Assembly (NCBI GenBank): GCA_964388035.1 | Contig: CAYLZE010000122.1 | Span: 1 to 14,451, forward strand | Origin: an uncultured archaeon | GTDB lineage: Archaea > Asgardarchaeota > Lokiarchaeia > Sigyniarchaeales > SOKP01 | Reading direction: 5' to 3' | Length of the DNA stretch: 14,451 nucleotides | Shown here: positions 3,920 through 14,451 of the stretch, in pieces | Layout: each line of letters starts with the position of its first letter | Numbering within the stretch: the stretch's first letter is position 1 | Position numbers and translations under genes: made by a program | Notes under the pieces: generated by a model | Databases searched by the model: none | What the model saw: the letters and a program-made list of their open reading frames with translations, nothing else | What the model was told of the DNA's origin: nothing

Positions 3920-4957
3920 TTATCGAGACACTCTTCCGGAAGTATCTCCTCCCATTATGCTGAGTACTTCCTCCACCGAGACGAGATTAAAATCTCCGAT
4001 GATCGTATGTTTTAAACAAGAGGCGGCGGTCGCAAAATTTAAGGCACTTTGGTAATCATCTTTATAGGTCAATAATCCGTAGATTAATCCCGCACAGAAT
4101 GAATCTCCTCCTCCCACTCGATCTACCATGTGCGTTATATCGTATTGAGGAGCCATGTAGAGTTTATTTCCATCGTATAATACTGCCGACCACGTATTAT
4201 GACTTGCAGAAAGAGAGCCTCTCAGCGTTATTGCAACCTTTTTAAGATTTGGAAATATTTTCATTAAATTCTCGCATACATGTTTATATTTCTCGGGGTC
4301 CAACTTTCCAGAAGTGACATCTGTTTCAGGAGCCTTTATGCCAAAAACCTTTTCTGCATCCTCTTCATTTCCGATAGCAACATCACAGTATTTAACTAAT
4401 TCAGACATTATTTCTGAGGGTTTTTTTCCATATTTCCATAATTTACTCCTGTAATTTAAATCAGCGGAAATGGTGAGGTTCTTCTTTTTTGCAACTTTAA
4501 CTGCTTCTAAGCACAAATCCGCAAGATTTTGAGATATTGCCGGAGTAATTCCCGTAAAATGAAACCATTCGACATCATTGAATATCGTTTCCCAATCAAA
4601 CATTCCTACTTTAGCCGTAGAAATTGCTGAATTTGCTCTGTCATATATGACTTTACTTCCTCTGGTAGATGCGCCCATTTCAAGAAAATAGATGCCTAAT
4701 CGCTCCCCTCCCCTCATGATGTGGTCCACATTAACCCCATATTGACGTATGAATTGCAAGCACGCATCTCCAACATCATTGGCAGGTAATCTCGTGATGA
4801 AATCAACGGGGATTCCGAAATTTGCAAGGGAAACTGCAACATTTGCCTCTCCACCCCCGTATATCACGTCAAACGATCTTGCTTGAACAAATCTCTGAAA
4901 ACCGGGAGGAGCGAGTCTGAGCATGATCTCTCCGAATGTAACCACTCTTTTTTTCAA
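3920..4957 (-). CDS. kdgK: PfkB-family sugar kinase, 2-keto-3-deoxygluconate kinase type
   Basis: 'VTFGEIMLRL', 'GGGEANVA', 'YDRANSA', 'HFTGITPA', 'DLNYRSKLW', PfkB signature 'DRVGGGDSF', C-terminal 'SGRVSR'. TTG start preceded by GGGAG. Confidence 0.9.
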   Translation of the reverse strand: MKKRVVTFGEIMLRLAPPGFQRFVQARSFDVIYGGGEANVAVSLANFGIPVDFITRLPANDVGDACLQFIRQYGVNVDHIMRGGERLGIYFLEMGASTRGSKVIYDRANSAISTAKVGMFDWETIFNDVEWFHFTGITPAISQNLADLCLEAVKVAKKKNLTISADLNYRSKLWKYGKKPSEIMSELVKYCDVAIGNEEDAEKVFGIKAPETDVTSGKLDPEKYKHVCENLMKIFPNLKKVAITLRGSLSASHNTWSAVLYDGNKLYMAPQYDITHMVDRVGGGDSFCAGLIYGLLTYKDDYQSALNFATAASCLKHTIIGDFNLVSVEEVLSIMGGDTSGRVSR

Positions 4958-5108
4958 TCTTTCTCCCTTTTCCTTTTATTTTATAATTATTAAAATACCT
5001 ATTAGTATCTTATTTTCTAGATATTGTGAATGAGTTATAATGGAAGGTAATGAAAAAGATTATTTTAATTAATGGCATTTTGTAAGAATTGCTTGCATTC
5101 TTTTAAAA

Positions 5109-5131
5109 ATGGGGTAGAGATGGGGTAGAGA
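5109..5131. repeat. Perfect 11-bp tandem duplication (ATGGGGTAGAG x2)
   Basis: Units at 5109-5119 and 5120-5130, read directly, just past the GH20 stop codon. Confidence 0.85.
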
Positions 5132-5142
5132 CAGGAGGCAGT

Positions 5143-6756
5143 CTAAATTTCTCCTCTTGGTTGAGTAAATATGGTAAAAATGCCAAAAAGTGTTTTATAA
5201 GCAGGAGGATCTATTTCTTCCATCTTAGCATGTCCTGCACCTAATAATTGCAGTTTTTTATTGAACACTTTTAATCGATCTTTAAATGACTTATAATTTT
5301 TATTCCTTTTTAAGCTCCATCCTGTTTCCGCTACTGCCACCAATCTTGGAAATGCTTGCCAATACAATCTTTTCCTATTAGGAACCCATTCTGTCCAAAG
5401 AGGGGCTTCTATGCCAAGGACATTCTCGTGATATTCCTCCTCCAAGTTCTTTGGAATAGGTTCATAACGATAAGATTTTCTTAAAGGTGTGAATTCATAC
5501 TTATAGTCTAAGTATACATGCCCAAATTTTGAAAAAACCATGTTTCTCCCTTGTCTTAGGGCATTTATTATTTTTTTATTCCGCCCCATCCAATACTGGA
5601 TAATCACATCCTTTTGCAAACCTTCTTTTAAGATTTGATTCCATCCCATCGTCGCATGTTCCTTAGATGAAAGAAATTGGGCAATCCTATTGGTAAAATA
5701 GGGTTGTAATTCCTCTACATTTTTTAAATTCTCTTCTTGAATTCGCCTCTGGCAATCAAGACAATTTTTCCAGCGATCTTTAGGGACTTCATCTCCTCCA
5801 ATATGAATGATATTTGAAGGAAAGATTTCCATGACTTCTTGTAAAACATTCTCTAAAAACTGAAAGACTTTTTCTTTTCCTACACAGAATACATCTTTTT
5901 TAATTCCAAAAGTGTTAGGGATCTCAAAAGGACCTCCCGTGCAACTCAATTCGGGATACGCAGCAAGAGCAGCCATGCAATGCCCGGGCATTTCTATTTC
6001 AGGTATGATTTCAATAAATCTATCACTTGCATATGAGATGATTTCTTTAATATCCTCTTGTTTATAATGACCCTCATGGGGAGTTTCTTCAATTTTTTTG
6101 CTAATAAATCCCCCTACTTGAGTTCCTTTCCTTTTTGATCCAATTTCTATCAACTTAGGATACTGCTTGCTTTGAATGCGCCATCCTTGATCATCAGTGA
6201 GATGCCAATGAAAGATGTTCAGTTTCAAGAGAGCCATTATTTCAAGCATTGTTTTTACTATTTCTTTACCTTGGAAATGTCGACCTTCATCTAACATGAA
6301 CCCCCGCCAATTAAATCGGGGATAATCTTCAATTCTTAGATGCGGAAGAAAGATTTTGGAATTTTCGCTCATCTCGAAATTTATAAGATTATAGGGGAGG
6401 ATCTGTCGAAAAGTTTGAACACCATGATATAATCCAACGTCCTCCTTTCCAAGAATCTCGACTTTCTCTTCGGAGATACTCAGAAAATATCCTTCCTTAT
6501 CTATATTTAAATCTCTGTCAATCTGCAAGGTAATTTTATGGGAACCTTCTTCTTTCTCCTCGAGAGCCGAAACTTGGAGGTCAAGATTAAAAGCAGGTTT
6601 CAATAAGGTTTGAAGATATTCCCCGATTTTTTTAGCATCTGTGGGAACTTGAATGAAAAAGTCCTCAGTTAACTGCAATTCCCCTTTACCTTCCATGATT
6701 TTGACAGGCTGGGGAATTATTTTCACATTACCTATCACTTTTCTACTTGTAGACAT
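5143..6756 (-). CDS. GH20 beta-N-acetylhexosaminidase, no signal peptide
   Basis: 'IIPQP' start of the GH20b domain, 'EDYPRFNWRGFMLDEGRHF', 'HWHLTDDQGWR', 'PEIEMPGH', catalytic 'HIGGDEVP', 'YLDY', 'LWTEWV', 'FPRLVAVAETGW'. Confidence 0.95.
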   Translation of the reverse strand: MSTSRKVIGNVKIIPQPVKIMEGKGELQLTEDFFIQVPTDAKKIGEYLQTLLKPAFNLDLQVSALEEKEEGSHKITLQIDRDLNIDKEGYFLSISEEKVEILGKEDVGLYHGVQTFRQILPYNLINFEMSENSKIFLPHLRIEDYPRFNWRGFMLDEGRHFQGKEIVKTMLEIMALLKLNIFHWHLTDDQGWRIQSKQYPKLIEIGSKRKGTQVGGFISKKIEETPHEGHYKQEDIKEIISYASDRFIEIIPEIEMPGHCMAALAAYPELSCTGGPFEIPNTFGIKKDVFCVGKEKVFQFLENVLQEVMEIFPSNIIHIGGDEVPKDRWKNCLDCQRRIQEENLKNVEELQPYFTNRIAQFLSSKEHATMGWNQILKEGLQKDVIIQYWMGRNKKIINALRQGRNMVFSKFGHVYLDYKYEFTPLRKSYRYEPIPKNLEEEYHENVLGIEAPLWTEWVPNRKRLYWQAFPRLVAVAETGWSLKRNKNYKSFKDRLKVFNKKLQLLGAGHAKMEEIDPPAYKTLFGIFTIFTQPRGEI

Positions 6757-6944: not shown

Positions 6945-7757
6945 ATGCGTCCTTTATGGTTTGTACATTTATTACAAAAAACATTCCCTAATATTAAAGT
7001 AATTGCCAAATTGACCAACCTTCCCATATTAGGAAAGATCATTGATAAAATCTTTTTCTCGGGCGATGATATCCTTTATCTACCATTAGATAAGGTAATA
7101 TCTATCGATCAATCCATGGGAGAATATGAGGAAATGGTATTACCTTCTCATATTTTGGAACATTTTGTGGAAGAAGCGTCCTATCATTGGATCATGAATT
7201 TTTGTATTTGTAGAGAATCAATGCATTGTCAAGATTACCCTATTGAGTTGGGATGCTTATTCTTGGGAAAAAGCGTCCTGGAAATTAATCCTAAGTTGGG
7301 AAAATTAGTTTCCAAGGAAGAGGCATTGAATCATTTAAAAAAATGTAGAGAAGCGGGCTTAGTTCACATGATAGGAAGAAATAAATTAGATAAGCAGTGG
7401 CTAGGTGTGAAGGACGGGACTCAGCTTTTATCCATCTGTAATTGTTGCGCTTGTTGCTGCCTGTGGCGAATCTCTCCCCTCTTAAATCCTAAAATAGGAG
7501 CAAAAGTTAAAAGAATGTCGGGAATAAGCTTTTTAGTAAATGATAATTGCATAGGGTGCGGTACCTGTACTAAAAATATATGTTTTGTAGATGCAATCCA
7601 CCTTGTTAAAAATAAAGCCGTGATCAGTGATGATTGCAGAGGATGTGGTAGATGCATGGATATTTGTCCTCAAAAGGCAATTGAAATGACGATTTCGGAT
7701 GAATTTTCCATCGATAACGCGATTAAAGAAATAAGTGAACTTGTATTTTTAAAATAA
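6945..7757 (+). CDS. Cys-rich Fe-S protein with C-terminal 2x[4Fe-4S] ferredoxin domain, function unknown
   Basis: C-terminal 'CIGCGTCTKNIC' and 'CRGCGRCMDICP'. Upstream domain contains 'CICRESMHC', 'GCLFLG', 'GLVH', 'ICNCCACCC'. Confidence 0.85.
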   Translation: MRPLWFVHLLQKTFPNIKVIAKLTNLPILGKIIDKIFFSGDDILYLPLDKVISIDQSMGEYEEMVLPSHILEHFVEEASYHWIMNFCICRESMHCQDYPIELGCLFLGKSVLEINPKLGKLVSKEEALNHLKKCREAGLVHMIGRNKLDKQWLGVKDGTQLLSICNCCACCCLWRISPLLNPKIGAKVKRMSGISFLVNDNCIGCGTCTKNICFVDAIHLVKNKAVISDDCRGCGRCMDICPQKAIEMTISDEFSIDNAIKEISELVFLK

Positions 7758-8919: not shown

Positions 8920-10392
8920 TTATCTATCCGGAACTACATCAGAGGGTTCCCAAAAAATATTATTAATTTTCAAGTTTTTGATGCGAGTTCTTAATTTTAA
9001 TGCAGATACCGCCTGAACGGTTTCTTTAATGCTATGAAATACGGGAATGCTACTCAACTCTAAGGATTCGATGATGAGGGCGTACTTTTCCACATATGGC
9101 ATGAAAGTCACAATTGGCTTCTTTTTATACGTAACTATATTTGCGATCCTCCTCCCAATTTGGAAGCTAATATTCGGGGGATACGGTAATAAAAGCAAAA
9201 TGATACATTCAATCCTTTCTATCTCCGATAAATATTGGACCATGCTTTCAATATCTCGATCCAGCACCGACCCCGTCAAATCAATAGGGTTGTTGAATGA
9301 AGCAATATCACGAGCAACTTCATTCAAAATCTCATACATTTCCTTTTTTTCTTTATCCGTGAACTTTACGGGAGTTAACCCGTACTTTTTTAACATGTCC
9401 GCACAAATGACACCATGACCCCCTGAAACGGATAAGATCACTACATTACCGTAGATGATTTCATTCTTGCCAAACGGCTGTTTTTTCTCCTTTTTGTAGG
9501 ATAACACATCATAGACCTTCAGAAAGGTAAGTAACTCTTGCTCTGAATGAGGGCGTATGATGTAATTTTGCTTCAAAGCAGCAAATAAAATTTTAGAATT
9601 ACCTGCTAAACTCGCGGTATGGGATTGAGTAGCAATGCGACCTTGATCAGTAATCCCGCCAAAAAATGTAATAATCATATCGTCGGATTCCTTGGCAAGT
9701 TGTAAAAACTTTCTTGCCTTATTCTCCTTAAATCCCTCCAAATAAAAGGCAATATTACTAGACTCCTTGTCAACCTTACTAAAATATTCTAAAAGCATGG
9801 ACTCATCTACCACGGCACGGTTCCCGATAGAAACTGCGGTAGAAACTCCAATATTTCGTTCTTTAAATTTTACGAAGAATTGATCGATGAGCACCCCTCC
9901 TGATTGGCTAATTAATGCAACACTTCCTTTAGGGGGACGAGTTATGCGCTCTGTAGGGAGAAAAATAGTATCAACTAGAGGAGGAGCATATACTCCAATA
10001 CAATTTGGACCCAGCACCGCAATATCATTATCAAAAGCTAAACGCTGAAGTTTCTCTTGTCTTTTAATACCTTCTCCTCCGATTTCGGCAAAACCGCCCC
10101 CAATAATCACGCAAGAGGGAATGTGTAAATCTACACACTGCTGAATATAATCTAACGTATCGTCAGCTCCCACTGCAATAACTAATAAATCTGGAATTTC
10201 CGATAGTTTATCCAAGCGTTCATATAAGGAGACTCCTTCAATTTCACCACCTTGAGGGTGAATTCCATATACTTTTACGTTCATCTCGAATTCATTTTTT
10301 AATAAAATGATTCTTCCAGGGCTAAGAGGATTGCTTCGAGAGACGCCTATGACCGCCATGATTTCAGGTTTGAATAATTTTTCTAAATTCAT
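8920..10392 (-). CDS. acdA: ADP-forming acyl-CoA synthetase, alpha subunit (CoA-binding and ligase domains, no ATP-grasp)
   Basis: 'LFKPEIMAVIGVS', 'GGFAE', 'GPNCIG', 'SQSGG', 'SIGNRA', 'YLEG', phospho-His loop 'QSHTASLAG', 'SGGHGV..AD', 'NPIDLTG'. 490 aa fits an alpha chain alone. Confidence 0.88.
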   Translation of the reverse strand: MNLEKLFKPEIMAVIGVSRSNPLSPGRIILLKNEFEMNVKVYGIHPQGGEIEGVSLYERLDKLSEIPDLLVIAVGADDTLDYIQQCVDLHIPSCVIIGGGFAEIGGEGIKRQEKLQRLAFDNDIAVLGPNCIGVYAPPLVDTIFLPTERITRPPKGSVALISQSGGVLIDQFFVKFKERNIGVSTAVSIGNRAVVDESMLLEYFSKVDKESSNIAFYLEGFKENKARKFLQLAKESDDMIITFFGGITDQGRIATQSHTASLAGNSKILFAALKQNYIIRPHSEQELLTFLKVYDVLSYKKEKKQPFGKNEIIYGNVVILSVSGGHGVICADMLKKYGLTPVKFTDKEKKEMYEILNEVARDIASFNNPIDLTGSVLDRDIESMVQYLSEIERIECIILLLLPYPPNISFQIGRRIANIVTYKKKPIVTFMPYVEKYALIIESLELSSIPVFHSIKETVQAVSALKLRTRIKNLKINNIFWEPSDVVPDR

Positions 10393-10962: not shown

Positions 10963-11943
10963 ATGAAAACAATTAAGAAAAAGGGTTTAATTTTCATTTC
11001 CTTGGCATTTTGTGTAGCTTTTTTTTTTATTACTCTAACATCTCCATCTTCAACTGCTTTATCAAAAAATTGTACGACCTTGACTCTTACTAGAAATAAT
11101 AAAATCTATTTTTGTGGGAATGAAGATTATAATCCTCAACACATGAGAATGTGGTTTTATCCAGCCACCGCGGATAAATACGGAACAATCCTTTATGGAT
11201 TCATGACATATGATGTTTTTAATCCCCTTGCGGGAATGAATGATCAAGGATTAGCTTGCGATGAAATGGCAGTGCCTTTTACTCCGGTCAAGAGAGATCC
11301 CAATAAAATTGATTATACTCAAACGCATTTATTTGTTAAAATTTTAGAAGAATGTGCCAATGTAAATGAAGTAATTCAATGGGTCAGCTCCTATAATCTG
11401 GTGACCTTTGAAATGAGTCCGGTTCAAGTACAATTTGCGGATATAACAGGAAATGCGGTTATATTAGGATTGGATTCAAATGGAGAGACTCATATCACTT
11501 ATAAGCAAGGAGACTATTTATTGGGAACGAATTTCAATGTTGCACAAGGAAGACAACCCGATTGGAGATATGATGCTGCTGAGAAAATATTAAAAGGAAG
11601 CAATAAAGCGTCAATTGAATATTGTACTTCGATTTTAGAAGCCACGGCTCAAGGAACTTCCTATAGTTGGTATACAAAATATTCCTACATTATTGATCTA
11701 AATACGGAGACCATTTATTTCTACTGGAATAGAGATTTTTCGCATTTTGCCATGGTGAATGTGAATGAGGAACTAGCTAAAGGAGTTCATTCTTACGATA
11801 TAGCAACTTATGTTTCACAACACGGGAATAAACCCTTCAATATGGCTCCAATAATATATGGCATCGTGATTCTTGGACTAACATTGATAGGATGTAGTTT
11901 GATATGGATGAAAAAAATAAGGCCTCAATTCAAGCACATATGA
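10963..11943 (+). CDS. Secreted, C-terminally membrane-anchored Ntn hydrolase (choloylglycine hydrolase / penicillin V acylase / C45-like)
   Basis: Basic plus hydrophobic signal peptide, nucleophile Cys37 in 'CTT', 'GNEDY', 'GMNDQGL', 'ADITG', 'TNF', and a C-terminal TM helix 'IIYGIVILGLTLIGCSLIW' followed by KK. Confidence 0.82.
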   Translation: MKTIKKKGLIFISLAFCVAFFFITLTSPSSTALSKNCTTLTLTRNNKIYFCGNEDYNPQHMRMWFYPATADKYGTILYGFMTYDVFNPLAGMNDQGLACDEMAVPFTPVKRDPNKIDYTQTHLFVKILEECANVNEVIQWVSSYNLVTFEMSPVQVQFADITGNAVILGLDSNGETHITYKQGDYLLGTNFNVAQGRQPDWRYDAAEKILKGSNKASIEYCTSILEATAQGTSYSWYTKYSYIIDLNTETIYFYWNRDFSHFAMVNVNEELAKGVHSYDIATYVSQHGNKPFNMAPIIYGIVILGLTLIGCSLIWMKKIRPQFKHI

Positions 11944-11993
11944 AGAAAAGGTTGTTTAATGTTATTAATTAAGAAATTTAGGTGAAATTTAAC

Positions 11994-12629
11994 ATGGAAG
12001 AACATCAAAAAAGCATAAAAGAGCAAGAGAAAAGAGATCAAGAAGGTAAATGCAATAATAAGAAGTTTATTGCTATTACTATAATATATATTGGATTGCT
12101 TATTGCATGTACAAGCTTTTTAAGAATACCATTTCGATTTAATACGGCAATCACTTATAGTATCGTGGTTCAAATGCATGTTGCTTCAATTTTAATTTTC
12201 TCTGCAGGAATAATGTACAAGCCATGGTCTGCATTTTTCATATGTGTTCTTGGCTCAGTCTTAGGAGAATTCCTTCAATGTTTAATGTTTGGATGTGGCG
12301 AAGAAATGCCTGCCTATCTAATGTACATGATATTATCCCCGGGATTGGCAGGCGGGATCATCTCCCTTGTAAAAGAAAAATTAAATCCAACCTTGAAAAA
12401 AGAGATTATTTCCCAATTGATTGGCGCCACATGGCAAATTTTCGGATTACTGCTGGGTGTTATTATTTGGTTAGCATTAATTTTGCAGTTCAGAAATGTT
12501 CTCGTCATTGTTTTTTATCCTTTATTGGCAACAATCTTTGATTTCTTTTTTATTCCGGTATCCATTCTCTTGAATGAAATAATCCGACGTGTTTTAAAAG
12601 TAAAGTACGTGAGTGATCTAGTAGAATAA
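11994..12629 (+). CDS. Integral membrane protein, ECF transporter S-component-like
   Basis: About 210 aa with 5-6 hydrophobic helices. 'LRIPF...HVASILIFSAGIMYKPWSAFFICVLGSVLGE' resembles the S-component helix 2-3 pattern. The ORF-track GTG at 11982 lies inside the SD GGTGA (11981-11985), so ATG 11994 is the likelier start. Confidence 0.6.
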   Translation: MEEHQKSIKEQEKRDQEGKCNNKKFIAITIIYIGLLIACTSFLRIPFRFNTAITYSIVVQMHVASILIFSAGIMYKPWSAFFICVLGSVLGEFLQCLMFGCGEEMPAYLMYMILSPGLAGGIISLVKEKLNPTLKKEIISQLIGATWQIFGLLLGVIIWLALILQFRNVLVIVFYPLLATIFDFFFIPVSILLNEIIRRVLKVKYVSDLVE

Positions 12630-12768: not shown

Positions 12769-14451
12769 GTGATAATTATTAATTCAAAAAACTTCTTAGA
12801 GCAAATAACAGAAGAAACCGAGGAAGGGCAATATAAAAACATTGGCCGCTTGGTAAGAAAAGCGAAAAGAGAGAACTATTCGAAGGAAGATATCGTAAAA
12901 GCTCTTTCTGAAGGTATAAAAAGTGCTAGTGATCGCTACAAAACCAAGGGCATGTACCTTGATGATATTGTTAAAGCAGCGGCGGCATTTGAAGTGGGTG
13001 CTCAATCACTAGGACTCAATTTGGAGGAAAAAAAAAGACCCGAACAACGAGTTGTTATAGGGGTGATGGGAGGACCTTGGACTATTGGTTCGAGCATTGT
13101 TGCATCCAATTTACGGGCAAATGGTTTTGAAGTAATAGATGCTGGCTCCGATATCACTCCAGAAATGATTGCTAAAACTGCAGCACAGTCAGGAGCCCGC
13201 ATTGTAGCTTCAGCCATTTATTTAATGCAAACAGAGCCCGATGTCGCGAAATTAGAAGAAGAATTATGGAAAACTGGTATTCGTCATAAAGTTAAAACTA
13301 TTCTTAGTGGACCCGCAGGATCAAGAACTCTTGCTGAGAAATATAATGTGGATGCTTATATGGAAAATGTAAATGATCTTATAATCAAAGTAAAAGAATT
13401 TTCCGAAGAATTAAAAACAGAGATGACCCCTTATGAAAGGGTAATGACTTCCGTAAAGCATGAAGAACCGGATAGAGTACCTTTCATGCCTTTTGCTCAA
13501 ACTTTTTGTGCTAATTTTGCGGGAATCGCTTTTTCAGAATACGTGAGTAAAGCAGAGAAATTTTTAGAGGGTCAAATGAAAGCTTACAATGCTTTTGGCT
13601 GGGATGCGTTATGTTTTTCTTCAGATGTAGGAATGTATGCTGGTGCACTAGGAGCAAAAATAGCATTTCCTCATGATGATGTACCGCGTATCGTTGAGCC
13701 CCTTTTACATCATGACTCGGTCTATAAAGATTTCCAAAAGTTATCCCTTCCAGATCCCTGGAAAGCCGGTCGTTTAACAGAATCTATAAAAGCAATTGAA
13801 CTTGCCAAAAAAGAATTAAAAGGGGAGGTCCCCATAATTGGATGGATAGAAGGCCCCTTTCAGGGCGTTAGCTTGTTGGCCGGGGCTAATCACTTGATGC
13901 TTTTCTACGTTTTAGATCATCCCGATGAATTCAAAGAAATTCTCGATTGGTATGCTGATTTTCAAATCGAAATCGTTAAAGCCATGCATTCTGCTGGCGC
14001 AGATATCATTGGAGTGGGTGAAACTGCCGCCTATTTCATGTCACCCACCTTCTTTAAGCAATATTGTCTGGAACCCGAAAAAAGACTCTGTAAGGCCATA
14101 CGAGAATTAGGAATGATTCCGTTAATACATTGCTGTGGATATGTTCCTCAATGCATCCCTTTTGCTGAAGAAACTAATCCGGGAGGTGCCATTCAATTTG
14201 ATTATCAAGTAAATTTAACATGGGCAAAAAAAGAACTTAAAAAGAAGGTGACTATTATGGGAAACTTGAATTATAATAAGTTAACAAAAGCAACCGTCAA
14301 GGAAGTATATGAAGATTGCCAAGCGCATCTAAGGATTGCAGCAGAAGGAGGGGGATACTGGTTAGCTTTTGGATGTGAGATTCCACGCGAATTACCAATC
14401 GAGAACATGAGAACTATCATGCGAGCCACAAAAACGGTCGGTAAGTATTAA
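12769..14451 (+). CDS. Fusion of corrinoid-protein domains (helical cap plus B12-binding Rossmann, non-canonical ligand loop) with an MtaA/CmuA-type (URO-D fold) methyltransferase
   Basis: Cap 'DIVKALSEGI..ASDRYKTKGMYLDDIVKAA'. B12 domain 'VVIG...IG..IVASNLRANGFEVIDAGSDITPE'. The URO-D-fold domain starts at M219 'MTPYERV...EEPDRVP' (13423) and contains 'GRL', 'EGPF', the Zn motif H454-C-C456 and C536 ('FGCEIP'). Exact start uncertain (12769-12778). Confidence 0.88.
   Translation: MIIINSKNFLEQITEETEEGQYKNIGRLVRKAKRENYSKEDIVKALSEGIKSASDRYKTKGMYLDDIVKAAAAFEVGAQSLGLNLEEKKRPEQRVVIGVMGGPWTIGSSIVASNLRANGFEVIDAGSDITPEMIAKTAAQSGARIVASAIYLMQTEPDVAKLEEELWKTGIRHKVKTILSGPAGSRTLAEKYNVDAYMENVNDLIIKVKEFSEELKTEMTPYERVMTSVKHEEPDRVPFMPFAQTFCANFAGIAFSEYVSKAEKFLEGQMKAYNAFGWDALCFSSDVGMYAGALGAKIAFPHDDVPRIVEPLLHHDSVYKDFQKLSLPDPWKAGRLTESIKAIELAKKELKGEVPIIGWIEGPFQGVSLLAGANHLMLFYVLDHPDEFKEILDWYADFQIEIVKAMHSAGADIIGVGETAAYFMSPTFFKQYCLEPEKRLCKAIRELGMIPLIHCCGYVPQCIPFAEETNPGGAIQFDYQVNLTWAKKELKKKVTIMGNLNYNKLTKATVKEVYEDCQAHLRIAAEGGGYWLAFGCEIPRELPIENMRTIMRATKTVGKY

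Follow-up and report, generated by a model that had tools for sequence, protein, structure and literature searches.

Can the corrinoid module of a methyltransferase operate when the histidine that ligates its cobalt has been replaced by a tryptophan? This question is raised by the last gene of contig CAYLZE010000122.1 (C122), the whole of which (14,451 bp, called the window here) was analysed, and which belongs to a 5.47 Mb genome (G000; 33% GC) of an uncultured Lokiarchaeia archaeon. In corrinoid methyltransferases, tuning of the cobalt among Co(I), Co(II) and methyl-Co(III) is ascribed to the lower axial histidine, which acts as a switch together with an Asp-Ser relay. The gene encodes a protein of 560 amino acids (aa) in which a corrinoid module of the MtaC/MttC type (residues 1-218) is fused to an MtaA-like methyltransferase of the URO-D (uroporphyrinogen decarboxylase) family, and Trp104 occupies the position of the cobalt-ligating histidine. 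The Trp-type module is genuine and strongly conserved, a variant of the corrinoid carrier of methyltransferases that has apparently not been described, and the replacement of His by Trp throughout a clade of archaea and bacteria points to an undescribed mode of tuning B12 chemistry in methyl transfer.

The DNA at positions 13051-13110 encodes V-V-I-G-V-M-G-G-P-W-T-I-G-S-S-I-V-A-S-N. A phmmer search against all PDB chains placed W104 opposite the histidine of the DxHxxG motif in MttC (7xcn), MtmC (3ezx), a Moorella corrinoid protein (1y80) and CobDH (4jgi), with E-values from 7.5e-18 (MttC) to 6e-10. In the alignment with 4jgi, G102, W104, G107 and A149 stood opposite D100, H102, G105 and S147 of CobDH. 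Asp100, His102 and Ser147 are conserved residues of CobDH, and the histidine is the cobalt ligand (PMC3727330). The whole Asp-His-Ser triad is replaced in the fusion protein (G102, W104, A149), and the glycine G107 alone is kept of the DxHxxG motif. In addition, the loop lacks one residue compared with canonical corrinoid proteins, the SxL motif has become A149-I-Y151, and the GG motif has become S180-G181, followed by P182. An earlier note on this DNA had claimed that both Asp and His were gone, that the loop was shortened by one residue, and that the SxL and GG elements were altered ('SAIYL', 'LSGP'). The first two claims were borne out by the DNA and the alignments. The motif changes are also real, but the motif serine aligns with A149 and not with S148.

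The scaffold that carries these changes was readily recognised. Pfam B12-binding matched residues 96-185 with 39.3 bits, above its cut-off of 32.1, and the B12-binding_2 annotation is precomputed for many homologues of the fusion protein. An AlphaFold2 (AF2) model of the domain alone, computed from a mixed alignment of 70 sequences, reached a predicted local distance difference test (pLDDT) score of 90. In Foldseek comparisons it matched MttC (7xcn), MtmC (3ezx), CobDH (4jgi), MtaC (2i2x) and the cobalamin domain of MetH, and its Rossmann part superimposed on 1y80 with a root-mean-square deviation (rmsd) of 1.2 A over 119 columns. In the full-length AF2 model (pLDDT 78), the URO-D barrel was confident, and the N-terminal module was less so (55-79). 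Judged by the domain model, the corrinoid-carrier scaffold is intact. The stop codon of the open reading frame is the last triplet of the window and of the contig, the frame is open throughout, and homologues of 555-576 aa align end to end with the 560-aa protein (99% coverage). The earlier description of an open frame with a recognisable cap and Rossmann scaffold thus agrees with the intact frame and with the fold matches to corrinoid proteins.

Another residue of the module could in principle have taken over as cobalt ligand, and the earlier note had named another His at the cobalt as a finding that would speak against its proposal. However, no alternative His or Cys is conserved in the corrinoid module. 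The module of the window protein contains no Cys, and its single His, H173, is 87% conserved and, as known topology suggests, should precede a strand, at its N-terminal end, on the side of the sheet that faces away from the cofactor. Other His or Cys residues were therefore rejected as cobalt ligands.

The Trp loop is not a peculiarity of one protein. Among the best 120 database proteins, 118 cover the loop and two are without it; all 118 contain GPW[T/S][I/M][G/S], and 115 the exact GPWTIG. The public-record labels of close relatives are Lokiarchaeota, Promethearchaeota, Hodarchaeota, Thorarchaeota and Hermodarchaeota. Bacterial members with 46-49% identity, one of them labelled Candidatus Abyssubacteria, read D-G-P-W-T-I-G, and a 571-aa fusion with 39% identity (P0125) reads GPWTVG. 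Conservation of GPW across a clade, which had been proposed as a check, was thus found in Asgard archaea and in bacteria.

For the comparison of motifs, 159 corrinoid domains were aligned, 13 from the Trp clade, 139 of the His type and a few other His-less ones. In the Trp clade, the His position was W, the SxL position was (A/G)x(Y/F) and the GG position was SG in 13 of 13 sequences, and the Asp position was Gly, or Asp or Glu in some members. The His-type domains had H in 139 of 139 cases, kept GG in 138 and kept SxL in 96. The Trp clade came out as monophyletic (Shimodaira-Hasegawa-like support 1.0) on a long stem, 0.65 substitutions per site in length, and the tree did not resolve its sister group. 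Loss of the histidine is not unique to this clade, because Gln (P0136, P0142, P0170, P0180 and P0220), Phe (P0174) and Thr (P0210) variants also exist among the 159 domains. These variants keep GG, none of them forms a large conserved clade in the data set, and they are stand-alone corrinoid proteins with the exception of the fused P0220. The latter is CmuA-like, with the methyltransferase domain first, and its pairing with the otherwise separate Trp clade in the tree was unsupported (0.066). CmuA itself reportedly also carries Gln in place of this His.

On average, the Rossmann domain was 65% identical to that of the window protein, and URO-D 72%. In the comparison with the closest orthologue, the corrinoid module had a ratio of nonsynonymous to synonymous substitution rates (dN/dS) of 0.098 and the URO-D domain one of 0.093, at a dS of about 1.5; dS was saturated in most orthologue pairs, and dN/dS is informative for this closest pair only. 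By this measure, the corrinoid module is under purifying selection as strong as that on the catalytic domain. The invariant residues of the module, G102, P103, W104, I106, G107, S180, G181 and P182, lie on cofactor-facing loops. A sequencing or assembly error, or a decaying paralogue, could also put a Trp in this place, and the gene does lie at a contig end. Beyond this position we found nothing that favours such an origin, and it is practically negligible in view of the conservation, the monophyly and the dN/dS values. The exchange of His for Trp takes three base changes, and the GPW loop recurs in every homologue that covers it, in independent assemblies and in a full-length intact frame, in line with the earlier argument that a single sequencing error cannot explain the Trp. 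The pattern that would have indicated decay, orthologues retaining DxHxxG next to a copy under relaxed selection, did not occur.

What chemistry the module serves is indicated by the domain to which it is fused. Pfam URO-D matched residues 221-556 with 211 bits, and TIGR01463 (MtaA/CmuA) matched residues 218-556 with 158.3 bits, under its cut-off of 235.4. The barrel superimposed on MtaA (4ay7) with a template modelling (TM) score of 0.89 and an rmsd of 2.4 A in Foldseek. MtaA and MtbA thus share fold, length and HxC...C ligands with the C-terminal domain, but identity is only about 22%, and the equivalog models for these two enzymes gave 106.5 bits, under their cut-offs of 400 and 600. The zinc ligands of 4ay7 correspond in the alignment to H454, C456 and C536, which are invariant in 42 homologues. 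The genome contains 29 URO-D frames including the fusion gene, and only three keep the HxC...C triad, namely the fusion gene, C45:23300-24352 and C9:46378-47484. Most of the others are longer, have different residues at the triad and resemble O-demethylase or CdmB-type MTI enzymes; CdmB needs no zinc (PMC13222342). Because the zinc ligands are kept, unlike in most URO-D paralogues of the genome, the URO-D half is classified from its sequence as MT2-like, the class that moves methyl groups between methyl-corrinoid and thiol. Pfam found only B12-binding and URO-D in the fusion protein, and no radical SAM (S-adenosylmethionine) domain. The host is not known as a producer of coenzyme M (CoM), and the acceptor or donor must therefore differ from that of MtaA and MtbA.

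We consider it probable, by analogy with characterised corrinoid enzymes, that the fusion protein is a self-contained corrinoid-dependent methyltransferase with a built-in methyl carrier, in which the corrinoid is held base-off and His-off and Trp104 acts as a non-coordinating block under the cobalt. The N-terminal cap and Rossmann module would hold the corrinoid without a nitrogen ligand from the protein or the nucleotide, and the invariant Trp104 would fill the space beneath the corrin where His usually binds cobalt. The metal would then alternate between four-coordinate Co(I) and five-coordinate methyl-Co(III). When cobalt loses its lower ligand, Co(I) becomes more stable, the Co(II)/Co(I) potential rises and oxidised Co(II) is more readily reduced again. 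By this established B12 chemistry, the Trp-type carrier should be easier to reactivate, because the missing lower ligand raises the potential. The C-terminal zinc domain would shuttle methyl groups to or from the corrinoid, with a small substrate as the other partner. Corrinoid-bound methyl groups are the substrate class of the MtaA family, and by the same analogy a thiol or thioether is the likeliest small substrate. Both half-reactions might take place at one zinc site, a scheme proposed for MtsA/MtsB and MtsD/F/H, or a second methyltransferase might act in trans; the genome encodes three MtrH-type enzymes.

A precedent for a Trp beneath the corrin exists in a different class of enzymes. In the solved structure of TokK, a cobalamin radical SAM methylase, Trp76 from the equivalent loop lies under four-coordinate cobalt; ThnK and CysS are predicted by alignment to be like TokK, and QueG and TsrM use Arg, and CoFeSP and Mmp10 Thr or Leu, for the same purpose (PMC13331322). 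In TokK, the loop that bears the His in MetH supplies a non-ligating Trp below the corrin; the alignment puts W104 of the fusion protein at the His position, where it would likewise lie below the corrin. The likeness is one of mechanism and not of family membership. TokK performs radical methyl transfer via Co(II), has neither cap nor URO-D domain and is not homologous beyond the Rossmann fold, whereas the partner of the Trp-type module is a zinc methyltransferase of the SN2 type with no radical SAM domain. The comparison with CoFeSP drawn in the earlier note holds as a precedent for His-less binding, but it is loose, since CoFeSP places a helix residue (Thr) and not a loop residue under the corrin. 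Of the three options which that note had offered, a His-off corrinoid site, a site for another tetrapyrrole and a cofactor-free domain, the His-less reading stands and the His-off site has gained the TokK precedent; sequence alone does not separate the three.

Several observations weigh against a His-off methyl carrier. Together with the His, three residues of the canonical nucleotide-tail pocket have changed, namely both motif residues of SxL (Ser and Leu) and the leading Gly of GG, and the usual base-off insertion of the tail may therefore be altered or impossible. The module reached only 82 bits with the NCBIfam model TIGR02370 for methyltransferase-cognate corrinoid proteins (residues 23-203), far beneath the curated cut-off of 215.3. 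In vitro work on MtaA reportedly suggested that an axial imidazole aids the demethylation of methyl-corrinoid by thiolate; if this effect holds, one would not expect a carrier without the His to be fused to an MtaA-type domain. The substrate class would follow from family resemblance only. Furthermore, in seven genomic contexts no conserved partner methyltransferase or activase gene stood beside the fusion gene.

The loss of the nucleotide-pocket motifs in concert keeps two other explanations alive. The module might bind a different or incomplete cofactor, such as a corrinoid without a nucleotide loop (of the cobinamide or cobyrate type), a cobamide with a smaller or non-coordinating lower base, or another tetrapyrrole, and the Trp, Tyr and Ser substitutions would then be adaptations of the pocket. 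The joint change of GPW, (A/G)x(Y/F) and SG(P) and its fixation in all clade members, set against the partial retention of SxL and the nearly complete retention of GG in His-type domains, would fit such an adaptation, and Y151 and S180 lie where, from general knowledge of MetH and CobDH structures, the canonical domain leaves room for the benzimidazole tail. However, nothing in the sequence identifies such a cofactor, and Gly107 of DxHxxG, the cap and the overall fold are kept. In addition, the main cobamide of the cell fits a standard pocket, because the 12 other corrinoid-domain loci of the genome keep the pocket motifs that they cover. We hold a different cofactor to be unlikely.

Alternatively, the module might have lost its cofactor altogether and persist as a structural, docking or autoregulatory appendage, while the enzyme takes methyl groups from separate canonical corrinoid proteins. 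The loss of the full triad and the altered tail-pocket motifs would be expected in this case, and the 12 other corrinoid-domain loci, mostly stand-alone, could provide the carriers; that AF2 folds the domain confidently without a ligand says little either way. A mere scaffold would not be expected to show its strongest conservation on the cofactor-facing loops (G102-P103-W104-I106-G107 and S180-G181-P182), to retain the cap that covers the corrin in relatives, or to have a dN/dS equal to that of the catalytic domain, and the Trp-type domain was seen only in fused form, as all shorter matches look partial. A cofactor-free module thus seems quite improbable. The clade has given up all canonical cobalamin-binding signatures (the triad, SxL and GG), and yet its constraint equals that of the fused enzyme; there is a small chance that its cofactor state is new for corrinoid methyltransferases of the SN2 type, for example an unusual or tail-less corrinoid whose cobalt stays ligand-free permanently. 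If this is true and makes the protein self-sufficient in reductive activation, it would represent a new class of B12-type methyl transfer module.

The fusion can be placed among the known systems as follows. It shares with MtaC, MttC, MtmC, MtbC and CobDH the cap and Rossmann fold, homology and the Gly of DxHxxG, and its expected role, as methyl carrier for a URO-D-type methyltransferase, is that of the MtaC/MttC-type proteins. It differs from the latter in its triad, whose three positions hold Gly (in some members Asp or Glu), Trp, and either Ala or Gly, in SxL, GG and loop length, in being fused, and in its score below the TIGR02370 cut-off. Fusions of related domains have been described before. 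A report on Methanosarcina acetivorans describes MtsD, MtsF (CmtA) and MtsH as single chains with corrinoid-binding and MT2 (MtaA-like) domains, proposes both half-reactions with methyl sulfides and CoM for them, states that CmtA also uses methyl-tetrahydromethanopterin (methyl-H4MPT), and proposes that a single MtsA-type site performs both half-reactions with methyl sulfides (10.1101/548461). These proteins belong to CoM-using methanogens, whereas the Trp family is found in non-methanogenic Asgard archaea and some bacteria and lacks the His. In CmuA, the chloromethane dehalogenase/corrinoid protein, one chain combines MTI and corrinoid protein (PMC13222342). The domain order of the CmuA-like P0220 is opposite to that of the Trp-type fusion, in which the corrinoid module (1-218) precedes URO-D (219-560).

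The Trp-type module was present in 13 of 201 genomes sampled from the phylum, the genome of the window included. The remainder comprised 10 of 40 further genomes of the same family and two of six genomes of one other family. It was single-copy each time, and each time it lay within a frame of 557-576 aa. A housekeeping role, for example as a novel methionine synthase, had been prompted by the 65-79% identity across Asgard orders, and was set aside given the presence of the gene in so few genomes. Searches limited to shorter proteins gave partial genes only and no convincing stand-alone Trp-type corrinoid protein. The shorter matches were labelled partial, ran into URO-D or lay on short contigs, and such a protein was rejected.

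Only two kinds of neighbours recurred. In four related Asgard contigs, a divergent gene for a GPH-type MFS transporter lies upstream of the fusion gene; the other neighbour is a CGGC-domain gene, found in two contigs of bacteria. In Methermicoccus, the mto methyltransferase operon is accompanied by MFS transporters (PMC8630106), and by analogy the Asgard neighbour suggests that the fusion protein may serve the catabolism of an imported methylated substrate, a weak hint because the four contigs are syntenic relatives. The genome of the window encodes about 79 paralogues of this GPH family (melibiose/glucuronide-type) of MFS transporters. Several adjoin URO-D or corrinoid genes, for example C65:2694-4004 by 4267-5397 and C1:78751-80136 by 80660-82018, and the gene orthologous to the flanking transporter of the relatives appears fragmented (C8:85634-86453). 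In the two bacterial contigs, a gene for a 118-aa CGGC-domain protein (PF08821) follows the Trp-type fusion on the opposite strand (L014 9786-10142, L015 2728-3084), and the same 171-aa protein without family precedes the fusion gene in both.

The fusion gene is part of a large corrinoid methyltransferase complement. The genome contains, in addition, about 28 other URO-D paralogues, most of them 365-450 aa long, MTI-like and often adjacent to a corrinoid gene, and, at places other than the fusion locus, one RamA/RACo-type activase and the three MtrH homologues. All 12 other corrinoid-domain loci keep the canonical motifs that they cover (GDxHxxG, SxL, GG). From its gene content, the organism is a heavy corrinoid user. 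One of the 12 loci, C66:7927-8574 on the minus strand (L003), contains a single in-frame TAG that divides the gene; the TAG falls at a variable position of the G-x-E/A-V-x-D-L-G strand. A pyrrolysine reading of this TAG was rejected, as no PylS above the cut-off was found in the genome, and a pseudogene or a mistake in the assembly is the probable explanation of the split gene.

No publication on the Trp variant and no paper containing 'GPWTIG' was found, and CdmB-type homologues in Sigynarchaeales were the sole finds in the literature on Asgard corrinoid methyltransferases. Homologues of the fusion protein are currently annotated as 'uroporphyrinogen decarboxylase family protein', a label that conceals both the corrinoid module and its Trp site. 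Conserved natural carriers that lack the His and have a remodelled tail pocket provide a direct test of how far the chemistry depends on the ligand, and they link methyltransferases to the ligand-free sites of cobalamin radical SAM enzymes, QueG and CoFeSP. As the hosts are Asgard archaea with dozens of corrinoid methyltransferase genes, the substrate would extend the view of methyl-group metabolism in sediment organisms.

Table 1. Features of the fusion gene and neighbouring genes, with positions in the window
Feature	Position	Strand	Basis or remark
Complete fusion gene, 560 aa	12769..14451	+	GTG start, stop 14449-14451; corrinoid module plus MtaA-type methyltransferase
Helical cap, four helices, residues ~9-80	12793..13008	+	AF2 domain model, helices 9-18, 22-34, 39-60, 64-80
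Rossmann-type B12-binding domain, residues 93-218	13045..13422	+	Pfam B12-binding, Foldseek
Loop G101-G-P-W-T-I-G107 instead of G-D-x-H-x-x-G	13069..13089	+	Alignment, DNA
W104 codon TGG, position of the cobalt-ligating His	13078..13080	+	DNA; alignment to 4jgi, 7xcn, 3ezx, 1y80
A149-I150-Y151, S-x-L motif position (triad Ser and nucleotide-pocket Leu)	13213..13221	+	Alignments
S180-G181-P182, G-G motif position	13306..13314	+	Alignments
URO-D fold, MtaA/CmuA-like methyltransferase domain, residues 219-560	13423..14448	+	Pfam URO-D, TIGR01463, Foldseek
H454-C455-C456, His-x-Cys zinc ligands of MtaA-type enzymes	14128..14136	+	Aligned to 'hicg' of MtaA 4ay7
C536, third zinc ligand	14374..14376	+	Aligned to Cys of 'pgcg' in 4ay7
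KDG-kinase-like PfkB	3920..4957	-	530 bits to 'KHG/KDPG aldolase/sugar kinase fusion' model, kinase half only
GH20 hexosaminidase	5143..6756	-
EFR1-type ferredoxin	6945..7757	+
ADP-forming acyl-CoA synthetase alpha-like	8920..10392	-

GH20, CoA-ligase and ferredoxin genes also lie near the fusion gene in two other contigs (L022 and L013), a recurrence that indicates regional synteny and not an operon. Next to the fusion gene, the window contains a two-gene module that occurs three times in the genome (window 10963-11943 and 11982-12629; L026 6646-8316 on C45; L027 4391-6083 on C46). Its first gene encodes a C45/Ntn-hydrolase-like protein (Pfam AAT/CBAH) whose N-terminus has a hydrophobic segment, and its second a membrane protein of about 210 aa without family; the copy on C46 matched the ECF riboflavin S-component model weakly (E 1.5e-4). 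MtaA-type URO-D genes, namely the fusion gene and C45:23300-24352, adjoin two of the three copies, and the contig of the closest orthologue (L020) carries two AAT genes 3 kb downstream.

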